Assembly: GCA_028522875.1 (NCBI GenBank)
Contig: GCA_028522875.1_3659.1
DNA from: a phage
Direction: 5' to 3' (one strand)
DNA length: 64,000 nucleotides
Under the pieces are notes generated by a model, which worked only from the letters and a program-made list of their open reading frames with translations, was not told the DNA's origin and searched no databases. Position 1 is the stretch's first letter. Each line of letters begins with the position of its first letter. Below are positions 48,274 to 55,236 of this stretch, one piece after another. The position numbers and the translations under genes are program-made.

Positions 48274-49038
48274 TTGAAATTTATCTACAAAGAACACTAC
48301 CACAAAGGTGTTGTGTGGAGTCTATTTGACGGGTCTGGTGGTGCAGTCATTGACTGGGCAAAAGCTGGGTACCTGTGCCTGTGCTTTAATGCAGAAGGTG
48401 CTGATCACGGCAGTTATGCAGAGGTGATAACCGATCATCCCAACATTTACTATGTGGATTATTGGATTGACCCATGGTTCCCTCAGGAAACTTTTTGCAT
48501 GTACCCAGCTCCAGACTTTATTCTTGCATTTCCTCCGTGCACGCATTTAGCGGTATCAGGTGCTGCACATTTTAAGAAAAAGCTGGCTAAGGACCCTATG
48601 ATCCAAATTAATGCTGTAAAGGATGCTCGGGTTGCGGAAGAGCTGGGAGAGATTTACGATTGCCCGTGGCATGTAGAGAATCCTGTAGGTGTTATGTCCA
48701 CACTGTGGCGCAAACCTGATTACCGTTTTCATCCTTCTGACTATGGCGGGTATTTACCGGAGGATGATGTAAACCCTTGGTTTCCTGAATTTATAGCTCC
48801 ACGCGATGCCTATCCAAAAATAACTTGCGGCTGGATAGGTAATGGATTTATAATCCCGGCCACAAAACCTGTCCCGCAAATAGTTGACGCGGTTAGCGGG
48901 TATTCCATGCAACACGCTAAGCTAGGTGGAAAAAGTGCAAGGACGAAGATGATTCGAAGCCTCACACCCCGTGGCTGGGCAAAAGCCGTATTCTTAGCAA
49001 ACGAGCCTGTAGTAAGGAGCAGAATTAATGGGAAGTAA
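48274..49038 (+). CDS. DNA (cytosine-5)-methyltransferase-like protein (short form)
   Basis: Motif I LFDGSGG (FxGxGG), motif IV FPPCTHLAVSGA (PC), motif VI HVENPVG (ENV-like); probable TTG start 48274 after aggaga since track start 48244 lies in terminator. Confidence 0.45.
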   Translation: MKFIYKEHYHKGVVWSLFDGSGGAVIDWAKAGYLCLCFNAEGADHGSYAEVITDHPNIYYVDYWIDPWFPQETFCMYPAPDFILAFPPCTHLAVSGAAHFKKKLAKDPMIQINAVKDARVAEELGEIYDCPWHVENPVGVMSTLWRKPDYRFHPSDYGGYLPEDDVNPWFPEFIAPRDAYPKITCGWIGNGFIIPATKPVPQIVDAVSGYSMQHAKLGGKSARTKMIRSLTPRGWAKAVFLANEPVVRSRINGK

Positions 49039-51106
49039 ATTTATGGCATCTGCATATAACCGTTTCGGTGAGCCAAACCCGAAAGCAACTAAGTATAAAA
49101 GTGGGGGAAGTGTGAAACGAGACTATCGTGATGAAAAAGAGGTTGAAACTGTAGAGACTGTTTTAGAAAATACTAAAATCGTCCCTGTCCCACAACAAAA
49201 TATCGGTCTGATGGCTGCACAATATTTTGGTGTGCGATCAGCATTGTCCCAAGAAGACGGTGTGACAGTTACTGCAACATATTTCCCATATTACGACCGC
49301 TACGGGAATCTGTCCGGTTTCAAAAAGCGTGACTGGACGATCCCCAAAGAGCAACGTGGGCACTTTACGACGGTTGGGATCGTAAAGGCTAACTCCCAAA
49401 TGTTTGGGCAAAAGCTGTGTGCATCTTCTAACAACCGTAAGCAGATTAACGTTTGTGAGGGGGAAGGCGATGTTATTGCAGCATGGCAGGCTGCATATCA
49501 GATACAAGTAAAAGGGATTCTCACCAACGCTAAAGCCCCGGCAAAGGTGAAACAGTGGGCTAAAGAGGTCCAGGACGGGATCGATGCAGTTATCAACGGG
49601 GGTGATCTGGCAGGAAAACCCTGCCTACCTTTTGTTGGAATTAACTGTGGATGTGCAAACGCAGTAGATACTTTTGCAAACAATGAGAAATTTATCCGTA
49701 GCTACGGAACAGTGGTCCTTGCAATGGACAACGATGCAGCTAACGAGGTAGAGAAGCAAAAACACGTTATCAAAGGTGTTGAAGCCACACATAATATCGC
49801 GGCATTTTTGATGGCTGATAACGTTTACCACGTGGAATACCCCAGCGAGGTAAACGACCCTGACGGTGTAAAAGATATCCGTGACATGCTGAAGGCTAAA
49901 AAGCTGGAAGATATTGTCAACATGTTCCGTCACCCAGTCAAATATGTGCCCGATGCTGTATCTGATTTAGAAGACTTCTCCATTGAATCTCTTCGTAAGA
50001 AGACTTCTAATGGCGTAGATATCAGCGCGGAGTTCCCTAAATTGCAGAAGATGCTGAAAGGACTCCACAAAGGCACCTTGATGATGCTGACAGGCCCATC
50101 TGGCGGTGGTAAAACAACTGTAGCCAAGAAACTAGAGCACTGCATTGCAAAATACTTGATGGATCCGACATGCCCTAAAGCCGATGATTATGAAGAGGAT
50201 GATCGCCTGTGTCTGATTCACCTTGAAGAGGACCCTGAGGAAGCAATTAACTCTCTATACGCCAACCAGTTGGGGTTTGATGTTAAAGAGTTTGTTGAAG
50301 ACCCTAGTCAGTTCCTGACTGATCAGGAGCATGCTGAGATTCACCAATCTTGGGCCAAGGCTGGAAAAATCAAAGTGTTCAAGCATTTTGGGTCTATTCC
50401 TGTAGATGAGTTGATCACTAAGCTTAAACAAATGGTGTGTCTGTATCACTGCCGTTATATTGTGCTGGATCACCTGTCCATGGTAATTTCAGGGCTTAAT
50501 GTTAAGGATGAGCGCAAAGAACTTGACATGGCTATGACGCAACTAGCCGCGTTCTGTAAGCAGTTTAATGTATTTATCTTGGTGATCGCTCACCTGAAAC
50601 GCACAGAGATTGTGCCTCCAAAGGACAAGGATGGGAATCCGTTACCTTTTTGGTATCCTGTACGAAAAGAGAACCTTCGGGGTAGTGCCGGATTGGAGCA
50701 ACTTAGCTGGGTAGTTGTTGGGGTGGAGGCAGAAGAGATGGTGGATCGTTCCCGTGGACGTGTCCGACTGGTAGGTCTTAAAAACCGCCCAGCAAAAACG
50801 TTAGGCATTGCGGATACCTTAGTTATGGATCCCCACACAGGTAAGTTCCATGATGCCAGCAACTGGTACTGGGACAAAGAAATGCAGATGTTCACAGACG
50901 GCGAAGGTGGGGAGGTTGTTTGGAGACCTCAAGCTATGTTTGAGGATCAAGAGCACGCAGTTGTAGAAACACCTGTAGGTAGGGTTGTGGCTGATAAGGT
51001 TGTAACTCCTACTGTTAACCCTGTTGACACACAAGAAGACCTTCCGTATGATGATCCGTCCTCTGACCCTGTTCCAGGTTTTGAAGACGATGAAACACCT
51101 TTTTAA
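49028..51106 (+). CDS. primase-helicase (Toprim primase fused to DnaB/gp4-like helicase)
   Basis: Toprim-like CEGEGDVIA and LAMDNDAANE; helicase Walker A LTGPSGGGKTT and Walker B-like YIVLDHLS; acidic C-terminal tail. Confidence 0.65.
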   Translation: MGSKFMASAYNRFGEPNPKATKYKSGGSVKRDYRDEKEVETVETVLENTKIVPVPQQNIGLMAAQYFGVRSALSQEDGVTVTATYFPYYDRYGNLSGFKKRDWTIPKEQRGHFTTVGIVKANSQMFGQKLCASSNNRKQINVCEGEGDVIAAWQAAYQIQVKGILTNAKAPAKVKQWAKEVQDGIDAVINGGDLAGKPCLPFVGINCGCANAVDTFANNEKFIRSYGTVVLAMDNDAANEVEKQKHVIKGVEATHNIAAFLMADNVYHVEYPSEVNDPDGVKDIRDMLKAKKLEDIVNMFRHPVKYVPDAVSDLEDFSIESLRKKTSNGVDISAEFPKLQKMLKGLHKGTLMMLTGPSGGGKTTVAKKLEHCIAKYLMDPTCPKADDYEEDDRLCLIHLEEDPEEAINSLYANQLGFDVKEFVEDPSQFLTDQEHAEIHQSWAKAGKIKVFKHFGSIPVDELITKLKQMVCLYHCRYIVLDHLSMVISGLNVKDERKELDMAMTQLAAFCKQFNVFILVIAHLKRTEIVPPKDKDGNPLPFWYPVRKENLRGSAGLEQLSWVVVGVEAEEMVDRSRGRVRLVGLKNRPAKTLGIADTLVMDPHTGKFHDASNWYWDKEMQMFTDGEGGEVVWRPQAMFEDQEHAVVETPVGRVVADKVVTPTVNPVDTQEDLPYDDPSSDPVPGFEDDETPF

Positions 51107-51164: not shown

Positions 51165-54100
51165 ATGAGCATGTGGTCTTTCGATTTTGAGTCATCCGGT
51201 TTGCTGGAAGACCCAGATCTTTATTATCACTGCGGCCTGTTTAAAGAGCTGAATAAGAACCGTTTTATGCTGTTCCTTCCTCTAAATGACCGCACACACT
51301 ACTCTGAAGAGGATATAGAGAAGGCTAAGAACTTTATTCTGGCAAAGAAAACTCTTTATAAAGATTTTGAAGTTCGCATAGCAGATTTTTCAGAGTTGGA
51401 AGGTTGGCTTACAGGAAATTCTGACTGGTCACCCACAGCTTTGAACTGCCACAACTGCTACAGCTACGACTTTATGCTGATGGAGAGATTGTCCGGTATT
51501 CATTTTGATATGTTCCGTGACCCTAAGTGTATGGGGACTATCAACGACCACCAGGTTAATCTGTTTGATACGTTGGCGATGAGCCGAATCTTGTGGCCTG
51601 ATCGCCCTTTACCAAAAGGTTGTCCGGACTCTGTATTCAACCCGGTTACTAAGAAAATGCAGCCTGTTGGTCCTCACGGCCTTATGGCATGGGGCTACGC
51701 CCTTGGTAACCAGAAAGTTCAAATTGATGACTGGCGCGATCTTCCGTTGTGGAAGTATGTGGATCGTGTATTCGAGGACGTTATCATCCAGGAGCTGCTC
51801 TGGAAAGAGCTGGTAGCGGAATCAAAAGGTGTATTCTACGGCAAATCTGACATGCAGAACTTTATGTACGATCCAGCCAAAGAGAAGCCGAAAGGGTTCA
51901 AGAAGATCACCTGGAAGAACGCACTACGTCGAGGCATGCTGCAGCACTTCCTGATGGAGCTGCAGGCCCGTCAGGGTGTATACTTCGACATAGATGGAGC
52001 TATTGCTTTACGTGACCGTTGCGATGCGTGGATGAAAGAAATCGCTGATCGTGTTGAACCACAACTACCTTTAAAAGAGCTGTCAATGTCTCAGCGGCCC
52101 AAGTTCCCTGAAAAGCCGTTTAACCAAGACGGGACAATCTCTAATAATGGTTGGAAATGGTTAAAAGATAAGCTTGGCTATCCTGTAGACATGAGCGCTT
52201 TAGATTTCAAAGCCCCGCCTAAGCGAGCATTTACCTCTACAGGAGATGTCAGCAAGATGGGGATAAAATGGTGTGAAGAGATGGGCTGCAAAGACCCCGA
52301 TAAGATGGCTGATTTCTTGAGAGGCTATATTAAGGGCACTTCCACACCTCACCCTTTGCCTAAAGAGCTGATGGATCAGGCAATAAGTGATCTACAGCAG
52401 AAGCGAATGCCGGACTGCAAGATACCTATGAAAATCAGCAATCAGGACGACATTAAGCGGTATCTGATCAGTGCTGGCTGGCTACCGACAATGTGGAGAA
52501 CTAAGGATGTAACTAAAGATAGCAAGAAGAAAGCTCTACCTGATGCGGATGTTGATGCACGAGTATATGCATATATGGACGAGCTTTTAGAGTCAGAGTA
52601 TTGTGACCTGATTATCAACTTCTGGAACAAAACTGATGCCAAGTTCCAGACAACTGTGCACAAGTTCCGAAGCTTTCCTAACTCTGAAAGGATTAAAAAG
52701 GAAGTATTCGGGAAAATACGTAGAAAAGCCAGAGCACTTATTACTTCTCCGCAACTGAAAGATACGTTTGGACACCTGTGTCCGAATCTTGAAAAATTGA
52801 ACGGAGAGATGGCTAAAGATATCGTCTTGTGGTTATCATTGCGAAACCGCAGATCAGTCCTTGATCCAATCAAGGAGGATAAGGTTGATACTGGTCTTCT
52901 TAATCACCCACGTTTGAAGATTGACCATAAGCTTCCTGCTAAAAGCTCTGGATTAACAAACACTTCCAGACAGAAACACAGTATTTGTGCAAACATGCCT
53001 AAACCATCCCCTAAAGTGGTTATGGGTAAAGAGATGCGCAGTCTGTGGGGTGTTCCTCCTGGATACTTTCAGATCGGTATTGACGGGTCCAACTTAGAGC
53101 AGCTTATCGGGGCTTGGGGTGCCTTTGAGTTCGACAACGGCCTGTATTACGATGTTGTAAGTAACGGCGATGCACATTGTTATTCAGGAGATACACAAAT
53201 TCTCACGGAGAAAGGGTGGGTGAGGTTTGAAGATCTTGATCCGGGAACACAAGTGTTCCAGTACGATCACAACACCTCGTCAATGAACCTTGTTACTCCA
53301 TTAAATTACGTTAAGCGTAGTTATTATGGAGATATGTATCATTTCCACAACAGTAGTGTGGATTTTATGGTTACAGATCAACACAGGATGCTGACTGTGG
53401 ATCACAGAAGCAATAAATTGTTTGAAGATTTGGCAAAAGACCTGAAAGCAGGTAAAGGGTCTAATTCAGGAAGAAGGTTTATCCATGCGGCAGAGTTTTA
53501 TGGGAATACAGCCTTATCTCCTGCCCAGGTTAATTTGCTTATTGCTATTCACGATGATGGGCACTTGCATACAAATAAGGACGGCAGCATCGTGTGCAGG
53601 ATTCAGGTCGGAAAGGGAAGAAAAGTTGCAACGCTTTTAGATACTTTTTCTGCTCTAAGCCTTAGTTATGTAGAGCAGAGCGGGAAAACCACAAAAGGAG
53701 GCTTACTGGCGAGAAGGTTCCAATTCCACGTTCCGTCTTGGGTATTTGAGTTTTTGGACAGCAATAAGGATTTCACCTACAACCTGATGAACCTTGATAA
53801 AGAATCTAAAAACCTGTTTATAGCTTCTTTATCTAACTGGGACGGGTGGGTATCTTCAGAAGGTGGAAAGGTTGCTTACTACTCCCAGGCCGAGTGTAGG
53901 AAGAAATCTGTAGAGGTGGTGTCTGCGCTGGCTACTCAGTGTGGTTTACGGAATAATACGGTGGCGATTCACAAAAAAGGTCGTGCCGTGCAGCACAGAA
54001 TCACAATTGGTAGCAAACAGAGAGCAGGGTTGCTGACACTATCTAAAGAGTCTGTCGAGGTGAGCGGTTCTTTGGTTTATTGCGTTACCGTCCCTTCTGG

Positions 54101-54557
54101 AGCAATCATTGTGAGAAGGAATGGTAAAGTGGCAGTGTGCGGTAACTGTAATAACGCCAAAGCTTACTCTTCTGTAGCAGGCAAGGAGATTTCCCGTAAC
54201 GATGGTAAGCCTATCACGTATGGGGTTATGTACGGGGCACAAAAAGATAAAGTTGCAGATATGCTGGACATCTCTCCAGAGTTGGGACAAAGGGTAATCG
54301 ATGCACTCTGGGATGCCAACCCTGGTCTCAAGGGGCGCAAAGAGGATCTGGAGAAATTCTGGGAAGCAACTGGTAAGAAGTTTATCTACTCTTTTGATGG
54401 TCATGCTATCTGGACCAGATCTAAACACTCTTTACTTAATGCATACCAACAGAATGGTGGTGCATCGCTGTGTGACTTAGTTGGGATACTTATGCACCAC
54501 CAAATGGTGAAGCGTGGGTGGTACGATGAAGGTGTTCGTCGTATTATTTATTACCAT
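51165..54557 (+). CDS. DNA polymerase, family A (T7-like), exon 1; contains an in-frame intein
   Basis: 3'-5' exo motif FDFESSG; motif A IGIDGSNLEQLIGAW; motif B KPITYGVMYG; ORF stops right after ...IIYYH-K at motif C position. Confidence 0.8.
53178..54146 (+). mobile_element. intein (Hint domain with degenerate LAGLIDADG-like endonuclease region) in DNA polymerase
   Basis: 323-codon insert between pol motifs A and B: starts CYSGDTQILTEKGWVRFEDL (block A), TxxH block B at VTDQHRMLT, ends ...RRNGKVAVCGN with +1 Cys; flanks align with T7 pol NGDIHTKNQIA. Confidence 0.6.
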
Positions 54558-54833
54558 AAATAACATTGTGGCTTCATAGAGTAATCTATGTCGAATAACC
54601 TCTTTAACTGCGGGAAGCCTAAACCTTATGGCAAGGTAATCCGCAACGAAGCGCTCAAAAGAGCGAACGCTCAGAGGCCATTCCGAAAGGAAGTAGACCA
54701 GCAAGTGCGGTCGAAATGGGAGGATTCCTGTGGTTGCTTATCATAGGAATATGAGATGGTCCGATCCTACGTGAAAACGTATGGCTATGCACGTAATGGT
54801 GCGGGGTAGCTTAACGACCTACCTGAACTATTG
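54558..54833 (+). ncRNA. group I self-splicing intron (no ORF) interrupting DNA polymerase motif C
   Basis: 5' exon ends in U (54557), intron ends in G (54833); P1 exon CCAU with intron GUGG (54567-54570); core elements P CUGCGGGAAG (54607-54616), Q AAUCCGCAAC (54637-54646), R GUAGACCAGC (54692-54701), S GAGAUGGUCCG (54752-54762); splicing restores YYH-DEYQ. Confidence 0.75.
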
Positions 54834-55187
54834 GATGAGTACCAACTTCAGGTCCCTGACACGCCTAAGTATAAGACTGTGTACACCTTCGACACAATTG
54901 AAGAATTGGAAGCATTTAAGGCAGAGCAGGAGGCCAAACTTCATGTGTTTGACGGTCATAAGTACAAAAAGGCACGCAAGGATGAAAACGGAAACGAAGT
55001 GGTTGACAGAGACGGAAACACGGTGTACGATCCTATCCTGAACGATGACGGAAAGCTTGAACTTATCTGGAGCCCTGTGGGTGAAATGGTGGTGCATTGC
55101 TTCTGGCAAGCTTCTAAAATGATGGGCGTTCCATTCCAGATCACAGGTGAATACTTGTGTGGTCGGAACTGGGGTGATTGTCACTAA
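54834..55187 (+). CDS. DNA polymerase, family A, exon 2 (C-terminal part)
   Basis: Begins GAT GAG (DE of motif C HDE) right after intron-terminal G; C-terminus ...GRNWGDCH parallels T7 DNA polymerase ...GPNWAICH. Confidence 0.75.
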   Translation, partial: DEYQLQVPDTPKYKTVYTFDTIEELEAFKAEQEAKLHVFDGHKYKKARKDENGNEVVDRDGNTVYDPILNDDGKLELIWSPVGEMVVHCFWQASKMMGVPFQITGEYLCGRNWGDCH

Positions 55188-55236
55188 TGTAAACTATCAG
55201 CATAGGGAGGTGCTGTTGAGCAAAGAGGGGATTTTT

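Follow-up and report, generated by a model that had tools for sequence, protein, structure and literature searches.

The family A DNA polymerase gene of an Escherichia coli phage raises the question of what an in-frame insertion of 323 codons is doing inside an essential gene, and whether the insertion still moves between phages. The gene is on contig GCA_028522875.1_3659.1 of NCBI GenBank assembly GCA_028522875.1, of which a stretch of 64,000 nucleotides, here called the window, was analyzed; all features described below are on its plus strand. An earlier note, made from the letters of the window, had proposed that positions 53178–54146 encode an intein. That overall reading is borne out by a Hint fold, a LAGLIDADG endonuclease, a precise presence/absence polymorphism among sister phages, and intact catalytic residues. 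The insertion is very probably a mobile, full-length intein with a LAGLIDADG endonuclease, located in a Vequintavirus polymerase, that splices by the class 1 route and homes into empty alleles.

The insertion and its intein family

The source phage is a Vequintavirus (rV5-like). Positions 51165–55200 align over their full length with seven rV5-like phages at 93–97% identity, and with roughly a hundred other vequintaviruses at ~96–97% identity across only 75% of the region. The open reading frame (ORF) at 51165–54563, of 1132 codons, is exon 1 of a family A DNA polymerase according to the ORF list and Pfam, and the phage has no other gene for a family A DNA polymerase.

Comparison with rV5 (NC_011041) delimits the insertion. 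The 969 nucleotides between window positions 53177 and 54147 have no counterpart in the aligned rV5 gene, and the reading frame is kept. With a slash marking the insertion point, the rV5 protein reads NGDAH/QNNAEAYTKVAGREV and its empty site GGAGACGCACAC/CAAAACAATGCT, or, as nearby sequence, ...AACGGAGACGCACAC/CAAAACAATGCTGAGGCA...; the window protein reads NGDAH, 323 residues, then CNNAKAYSSVAGKEI. The insertion opens at codon 672, TGT (53178–53180), the start of CYSGDTQILTEKGWVRFEDL, and closes at codon 994, AAC (54144–54146), the last codon of ...VAVCGN, after which the next codon is TGT. The coordinates and peptides given in the earlier note are correct, the gap against rV5 being exactly 969 nucleotides, and the extein junctions in the alignment with intein-free rV5 polymerase match its boundaries to the base. 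Its view that the C-terminal boundary is uncertain and non-canonical does not stand: the penultimate Gly is the family consensus, and the empty allele sets the boundary independently. The C-terminal boundary is certain because a Gly-Asn terminus is canonical for the family. The element as a whole (53178–54146) encodes 323 residues of 35.9 kDa, in which a LAGLIDADG homing endonuclease interrupts a Hint domain.

The same intein is found in seven phages of GenBank, at 91.6–98.8% amino acid identity to the window copy: Mangalyan, JEP1, NHEP1, 241Ecol014PP, YP-6, EPFV3-03/2025, and VB-EcoM-WM (hereafter WM). The site is uninterrupted in ~109 records, and only ~6% of sequenced vequintaviruses carry the intein. 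It is marked in none of the seven carrier records, where the product is labeled ‘DNA polymerase’, ‘DNA/RNA polymerase’, or ‘hypothetical protein’. Sixteen GenBank records titled ‘Campylobacter phage’ (MG0656xx, host C. jejuni) share 96–97% identity with this polymerase region.

The position of the insertion can be read against T7 gp5 by BLASTP. The N-extein (51165–53177; codons 1–671, ending ...NGDAH), delimited with the ORF list and this alignment, is 97.8% identical in nucleotides to the rV5 polymerase. Its motif A, GIDGSNLE, aligns with GIDASGLE of T7, and GIDGSNLEQLIGAWGAFEFDNGLYYDVVSNGDAH aligns with T7 GIDASGLELRCLAHFMARFDNGEYAHEILNGDIH, from motif A through His506. His671 pairs with T7 His506 and the +1 residue with Thr507, and farther downstream SRNDGKPxTYGVMYGA pairs with T7 motif B, TRDNAKTFIYGFLYGA; the earlier alignment of the flanks NGDAH and CNNAKA with T7 polymerase holds. 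On the basis of this alignment, the intein is placed between the equivalents of T7 His506 and Thr507, that is, between motifs A and B in the active-site region. In the T7 ternary complex, His506 touches the phosphates of the incoming deoxynucleoside triphosphate (dNTP), along with Arg518, Lys522, and Tyr526. If that contact is made, the unspliced precursor is expected to be inactive. All carriers are isolated, propagating lytic phages, and this ORF is their annotated polymerase. The remainder of exon 1, the first part of the C-extein (54147–54557), runs from motif B through ...RRIIYYH, pairs with T7 gp5 509–658, and has a Pfam DNA_pol_A match at codons 1009–1065.

The same module is found in many other proteins. 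With tblastn, end-to-end matches (residues 1–323) at 21–31% identity, with E down to 1e-24, occur in ~12 unrelated phage proteins: nicotinamide phosphoribosyltransferase (Nampt), NrdA, NrdB, thymidylate synthase (ThyA), PhoH, primase/helicase, nucleotidyltransferase, DNA methyltransferase, and metallophosphoesterase are among the hosts, and several of the records are labeled ‘+ intein’. A HMMER scan of 1.84 billion (1.84e9) representative proteins at E<=1e-3 yielded 8135 relatives (2383 at E<=1e-10), nearly all embedded end-to-end in bigger proteins. A word-index protein search returned no match for the intein alone and only six phosphoesterase inteins for a 17-sequence profile, which is a limit of the index and not an absence of relatives. 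The window intein is a correct, previously unannotated case and an ordinary member of this very large known phage intein family. Family A polymerases are among the listed hosts of inteins (PMC5874633), and the architecture of the window intein is a standard one. Related inteins, 33–40% identical, occupy the same site, directly after GDxH, in divergent metagenomic family A polymerases (P0013, P0015, P0024, P0132, and P0061), and the family is also present at two further family A polymerase sites, PN/CQNIP and DY/SQ in motif A. Among the best 150 relatives (P0007–P0156), family A polymerases are invaded at these sites, at least three in number, and many proteins hold two copies of the intein family.

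Residue frequencies were taken from 145 full copies within the best 150 of the 8135 relatives, in an alignment of 146 copies. Cys1 (TGT, 53178–53180), the N-terminal splicing nucleophile of block A, is Cys in 146 of 146. Block B, FMVTDQHRMLT (53364–53396), contains Thr66 (B:7), His69 (B:10), and Met71 (B:12); the first position is Thr or Ser and the second His in every copy, while B:12 is Met, Cys, Leu, Val, or Ile and never Trp. Block F, GSLVYCVTVPSGAIIVR (54066–54116), has Cys302 at F:4 (54081–54083), Cys throughout the 146; in a profile alignment it is paired with Asp, the residue that the Mja KlbA intein (...GHIYDLTV) has at F:4. Block G, KVAVCGN (54126–54146), ends in Cys321 (G:5), the penultimate Gly322 (G:6), and the terminal Asn323 that would cyclize. 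G:5 is Thr in 64 copies, Ser in 45, and Cys in 20 (129 of the 146 together), and the last residue is Asn in 130 and Gln in 16. Cys+1 (54147–54149), the first C-extein residue and the second nucleophile, is matched by Cys, Ser, or Thr in all 146.

Expressed over the 145 full copies, Cys1, Thr/Ser in block B, His at B:10, and Cys/Ser/Thr at +1 stand at 100%, the penultimate Gly at 91%, and the last residue at 89% Asn and 11% Gln, the usual ending being GN followed by Cys, Ser, or Thr. In the 17-sequence alignment, Cys1, Gly13, His69, Asp222, Cys302, Gly322, and Asn323 are invariant, and Cys, Ser, or Thr always follows. The Cys-first Hint block A at codon 672, the TxxH block B (VTDQHRMLT, with Thr66 and the invariant His69), and the ...VAVCGN end followed by Cys+1 (AAC, then TGT) are all where the earlier note had placed them. 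The penultimate His that is frequent but not obligatory in inteins is replaced by Gly322; what had been taken for an anomaly is the family norm (133 of 146 copies).

Profile comparison also leads to inteins of known structure. Searched against PDB sequences, the family profile has inteins as its top seven matches, including AceL NrdHF (1.3e-9), Spl DnaX (2.5e-4), and Mja KlbA (1.6e-3), with two unrelated chains lower at E about 0.09; over the middle domain it matches the endonuclease-bearing PI-PkoII and PI-PfuI. Family members match Pfam Intein_splicing (best 7.3e-7), Hint, Hint_2, and LAGLIDADG_3/1 at E<=0.01, matches that are not graded by curated cutoffs.

A tested member of the family is the mycobacteriophage Bethlehem RDF/phosphoesterase intein (Cys95...Gly410-Asn411/Ser; 317 residues, penultimate Gly316), which is recovered by the family hidden Markov model (HMM) at 1.5e-56 and end-to-end by blastp at 2e-11. 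It shares with the window intein Cys1, TxxH, the F:4 Cys, the ...GN end before Ser or Cys, a two-motif LAGLIDADG insert, a length of ~320 residues, and a host gene of phage DNA metabolism. The two differ in that they are only 21% identical, in host protein (phosphoesterase versus family A polymerase), in phage (mycobacterial siphovirus versus E. coli myovirus), and in the +1 residue (Ser versus Cys). Splicing of the Bethlehem intein is fast and essentially complete with its native Gly, which is thus compatible with splicing and even favors it, and is slower in the G316H variant (PMC5050341); its endonuclease was inactivated because it is toxic in E. coli (PMC5050341).

Expression of the window gene would proceed in two steps of removal. 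The group I intron downstream of the intein would leave the mRNA first, and a precursor of 1248 residues would then be translated. The Hint domain would cut out the 323-residue intein and ligate ...NGDAH to CNNAKA..., yielding a polymerase of 925 residues. The class 1 pathway is the most likely route: an N-S acyl shift at Cys1, transfer to Cys+1, cyclization of Asn323, and an S-N shift. The penultimate Gly, as the usual family residue, would not impair splicing.

The endonuclease and its mobility

The predicted structure contains both parts of a mobile intein. AlphaFold2, run with 42 aligned full-length relatives taken from the scan of representative proteins (43 rows), produced a model with a mean predicted local distance difference test score of 94.1 and a predicted template modeling (TM) score of 0.91. 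As a whole molecule, the model matches PI-SceI (E=3.5e-14), TliVMA, PhoVMA, and PI-PkoII in a Foldseek search of the PDB, with TM scores of 0.61–0.69 and E to 2.6e-9. Its Hint part resembles AceL NrdHF (TM 0.81 on the target). For the domain inserted in it, the matches are I-DmoI and I-SceI (E about 4e-6, probability 1.00), together with the endonuclease domains of PI-SceI and PI-PkoII.

PI-SceI (yeast VMA1), TliVMA, PhoVMA, and PI-PkoII have the same architecture of Hint plus LAGLIDADG endonuclease, yet are only 10–14% identical to the window intein, and their solved chains are of ~360–540 residues. PI-SceI has an additional DNA-recognition region, a His-Asn end, and Asp-type block F chemistry. 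The inteins of archaeal family B polymerases, such as PI-PkoII of Thermococcus kodakarensis, likewise place an endonuclease intein in a conserved catalytic polymerase motif, but in a polymerase of family B rather than A and at other insertion sites; they have His-Asn termini.

The homing endonuclease spans approximately residues 108–280 (53499–54017) and is built of two alpha-beta-beta-alpha-beta-beta-alpha halves, as assigned from DSSP on the AlphaFold2 model and from Foldseek. Motif 1, VNLLIAIHDDGHLH (53529–53570), contains the catalytic Asp127-Gly128, with Asp in 139 and Gly in 123 of the 146 copies. Motif 2, NLFIASLSNWDGWV (53811–53852), contains the catalytic Asp222-Gly223, and Trp, Asp, and Gly are found there in 137, 141, and 130 copies. 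The basic Lys149 (53622–53624) is Lys in 141 copies and Arg148 is conserved in 129; Lys149 presumably has the active-site role of its kind in LAGLIDADG enzymes. A Pfam LAGLIDADG_3 match is obtained for five of 17 family members. The earlier note had described LLIAIHDDGHL and LFIASLSNWDGW as degenerate LAGLIDADG-like stretches. Both are present, as the C-terminal ends of predicted helices 115–127 and 208–222, and Asp127-Gly128 and Trp221-Asp222-Gly223 in them are family-conserved; they are not degenerate in terms relevant to function, with both catalytic Asp residues and the Lys kept. The catalytic set of the window endonuclease is intact.

An active endonuclease would cleave the empty polymerase allele of another phage infecting the same cell, and repair would copy the intein, together with a short flank, into the cut allele. 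The flank would bring a +1 Cys in place of the Gln of the empty allele. The sequence next to the intein is consistent with such an event. Positions 54147–54191 (~45 nucleotides), a putative co-conversion tract, are ~50–60% identical to rV5, with ~50% mismatches across the first 30 nucleotides 3′ of the intein, while the gene outside the flank is ~97% identical in a base-by-base alignment. The last 10 nucleotides upstream (53168–53177) hold three silent changes. The +1 codon is Gln (CAA) in every empty allele examined and Cys (TGT) in carriers, and the spliced polymerase would bear the scar of Q to C, E to K, TK to SS, R to K, and V to I. Among the ~109 intein-free phage records, no allele with the CNNAKAYSS flank was found, the best joined-extein identity being 91%; such an allele would have meant precise loss of the intein or a donor lineage. 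The same flank, with an intein 88% identical, is present in P0008, a partial polymerase from a large collection. The simplest reading is that the diverged flank is donor sequence, putatively co-converted during homing.

The inteins and exteins of the carriers also have different histories. Six carriers have inteins 98.7–99.8% identical in DNA next to N- and C-exteins that are 90.3–97.6% identical, and the window intein is ~97.5% identical to these six. The WM intein (L024) is just 88% identical in DNA to the other seven copies (the window, L002, L003, and L020–L023), while its exteins are ~96% identical to those of the window. The divergence of the WM intein points to at least three intein lineages, with independent acquisitions or exchanges. 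At least three intein/extein combinations are in discord, and this discord indicates several transfers between polymerase alleles. Synonymous sites have diverged half as much in the intein (0.118) as in the exteins (0.225). Among the eight carriers, the ratio of nonsynonymous to synonymous divergence (dN/dS) is 0.12 for the intein and 0.02 for the exteins, and within the intein it rises from 0.09 in the N-terminal Hint part through 0.12 in the endonuclease to 0.20 in the C-terminal Hint part, all values being pairwise sums that are phylogenetically non-independent. By these values, the intein is under purifying selection. The selection on the intein, its discordance with the exteins, and the foreign flank beside it all indicate spread by homing, with site-specific cleavage by the window endonuclease as its probable driver.

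An alternative is that the intein is competent in splicing but has an inactive endonuclease, and is kept by vertical descent and ordinary phage recombination rather than by homing. Its low frequency among sequenced vequintaviruses, a motif 1 that reads HDDG where the family motif is QADG, and the missing Pfam LAGLIDADG match of the window copy itself would all fit. Set against these are the retention of both catalytic Asp residues, both Gly residues, and Lys149; the dN/dS of the endonuclease part; an intein far more uniform than its host genes, in discordant combinations; the short foreign flank beside it; and the toxicity of the related Bethlehem endonuclease in E. coli (PMC5050341). The alternative is accordingly regarded as unlikely, though it deserves some weight.

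The primase/helicase ORF at 49028–51106 also bears on mobility. It contains an empty site between 50683 and 50684, ...YPVRKENLRG/SAGLEQLSW..., and in the Avunavirus phage 19-1-2 (OK181858; L017) an intein of the same family occupies that primase/helicase site, ...YPVRKEDLRG/C...GN/SAALEQLSWV. In this genome, the empty site may be a second target for homing. No second copy of the intein was found within the window by tblastn or by the family HMM on six-frame ORFs.

The class of splicing

Class 3 inteins are defined by a missing N-terminal nucleophile (PMC2807308, PMC7891396), and block F:4 is usually Asp in class 1 inteins (PMC2807308). The window intein is filed as class 1 because it has the invariant Cys1 that a class 3 intein by definition lacks, and Kelley and colleagues placed the Bethlehem intein in the same class; phage inteins of class 1 that have a penultimate Gly have been described (Kelley et al. 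2016, mBio, PMC5050341). The class 1 route, splicing itself, and endonuclease activity are what the residues of the window copy predict. Four cysteines lie around its splice site: Cys1, Cys302, Cys321, and Cys+1.

The F:4 Cys gives rise to a second alternative, in which splicing is class 3-like or a hybrid: Cys302, with His69 and G:5, would make or share the first attack, or a disulfide between Cys1 and Cys302 would gate splicing. The closest solved relative of the N-terminal Hint half is the AceL NrdHF split intein (PDB 6zgq; Hoffmann et al. 2020, PMC7891396), which has in common with the window intein Met at B:12, Cys at F:4, a small hydroxyl or thiol residue at G:5, and an origin that is phage-like. 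AceL NrdHF is experimentally class 3, with a Met-Cys-Thr triplet, and the class 3 selection of its authors comprises inteins with no N-terminal Cys (PMC7891396). It differs from the window intein in being naturally split, in lacking an endonuclease, and in its class; the window intein is contiguous, has an endonuclease, and begins with Cys1. The conservation of the F:4 Cys throughout the family, where Asp is the class 1 norm, the Thr, Ser, or Cys at G:5 in 129 of 146 copies, the Met at B:12 of the window, and the kinship to AceL NrdHF by both profile (E=1.3e-9) and fold all speak for this alternative.

Of the features that go with class 3, however, only the F:4 Cys302 is present in the window intein. 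Cys1 is there, B:12 is Met71 and not Trp, and G:5 is Cys321 and not Thr. The conservation of Cys1 in every copy is hard to reconcile with a dispensable Cys1, a class 3 intein by definition has no such nucleophile, B:12 is without Trp, and the Bethlehem member was assigned to class 1 (PMC5050341). No mutational data on inteins with both cysteines were found in the literature searched. A class 3-like or hybrid route is improbable by this measure.

The last alternative is that the mature enzyme retains the insertion, either as a polymerase domain specific to this lineage or as a gene fused in frame. Nothing positive speaks for it, and it is rejected as having practically no chance: rV5 and ~100 near-identical polymerases precisely lack the insertion and have no native domain of equivalent length in its place; the insertion splits the fingers region that binds the dNTP, between the equivalent of His506 and motif B; its fold and catalytic residues are of intein type; and at least 12 unrelated proteins contain the same module.

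Several points weigh against a class 1 intein that homes. Splicing and DNA cleavage by the window copy are inferred. The expected detection of a Hint domain by profile search held for the family profile, which matches solved inteins with AceL NrdHF at 1.3e-9, but not for the window copy alone, which scores 23.6 bits against Pfam Hint_2 (cutoff 28.4) and 15.5 bits against NCBIfam intein_Nterm (TIGR01445; cutoff 24.5). The invariant F:4 Cys, with a nearest solved Hint relative of class 3, puts the identity of the first nucleophile in doubt. The non-independence of the dN/dS sums counts in the same direction, and the lower synonymous divergence of the intein could in part reflect phage-phage recombination instead of endonuclease-driven homing. 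A mobile class 1 intein is nonetheless the reading that is preferred.

The intron and the meaning of the locus

The same gene contains a group I intron of 276 nucleotides without an ORF (54558–54833), located in motif C (HDE), where it parts the His codon from the Asp codon. Rfam RF00028 matches 54548–54783 at 64.7 bits (E=6e-16; cutoff 50). The intein-bearing NHEP1 lacks exactly 54558–54833, which restores the frame to a contiguous polymerase of 1248 residues. The exon ends in U and the intron in G, and the exons join as ...YYH/DEYQL... inside motif C (T7 HDE). Exon 2 (54834–55187, stop included) encodes DEYQL...GDCH, and the joined frame of 1248 residues equals the length of the NHEP1 coding sequence (CDS). 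The joined window exons encode a precursor of 142.5 kDa, and the mature enzyme of 925 residues would be of 106.6 kDa. The coexistence of a protein-level intein and an RNA-level intron in one gene, as the earlier note had it, is confirmed by the Rfam score and by the absence of the intron from NHEP1.

Intein and intron vary independently among the sister phages, since NHEP1 has no intron, and Mangalyan and WM have an HNH endonuclease gene at the intron position. In the RefSeq record of rV5 (NC_011041), the polymerase is split in two ‘DNA polymerase’ CDS, with the small hypothetical ORFs gp222 and gp221 across the intron, and the first polymerase CDS begins 103 nucleotides downstream of the ATG chosen in other records. 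Pectobacterium phage CB7, of the same subfamily Vequintavirinae, has a LAGLIDADG intein and an HNH intron in NrdA and an intron-split polymerase (PMC7344957). It differs in that its inteins are in the helicase, NrdA, and NrdB, with none in the polymerase (PMC7344957).

In the literature searched, no mention of a Vequintavirus polymerase intein was found, and the NHEP1 paper does not contain the word ‘intein’. Because the records of the carriers leave the intein unmarked, 323 residues silently distort the lengths, alignments, and phylogenies of polymerases from rV5-like therapeutic phages.

The family may also bear on the origin of class 3 inteins, which is disputed between divergence from phage class 1 inteins and convergence from proteases (PMC7664689). 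Its members appear to combine both set-ups, Cys1 and a triad of F:4 Cys, B:10 His, and G:5 Thr, Ser, or Cys before a Gly-Asn end, and it is a doubtful though conceivable proposal that they stand midway from class 1 to class 3. Should the Cys of block F work as an alternative or obligatory nucleophile, or as a redox partner of Cys1, the family would be the missing intermediate between the two classes, and the E. coli phage copy, with its natural intein-plus and intein-minus sister phages, would be a handy model. At this locus an intein is seen importing its own +1 nucleophile (Gln to Cys) by means of a short flank. The vequintaviruses offer a natural and genetically tractable E. coli system, with sister phages in which the intein and the intron are each present or absent. 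Such a system permits homing and co-conversion to be measured, as well as any cost in fitness to a phage whose essential gene holds both selfish elements. In all other respects, the window intein is one further example of a well-described phenomenon.

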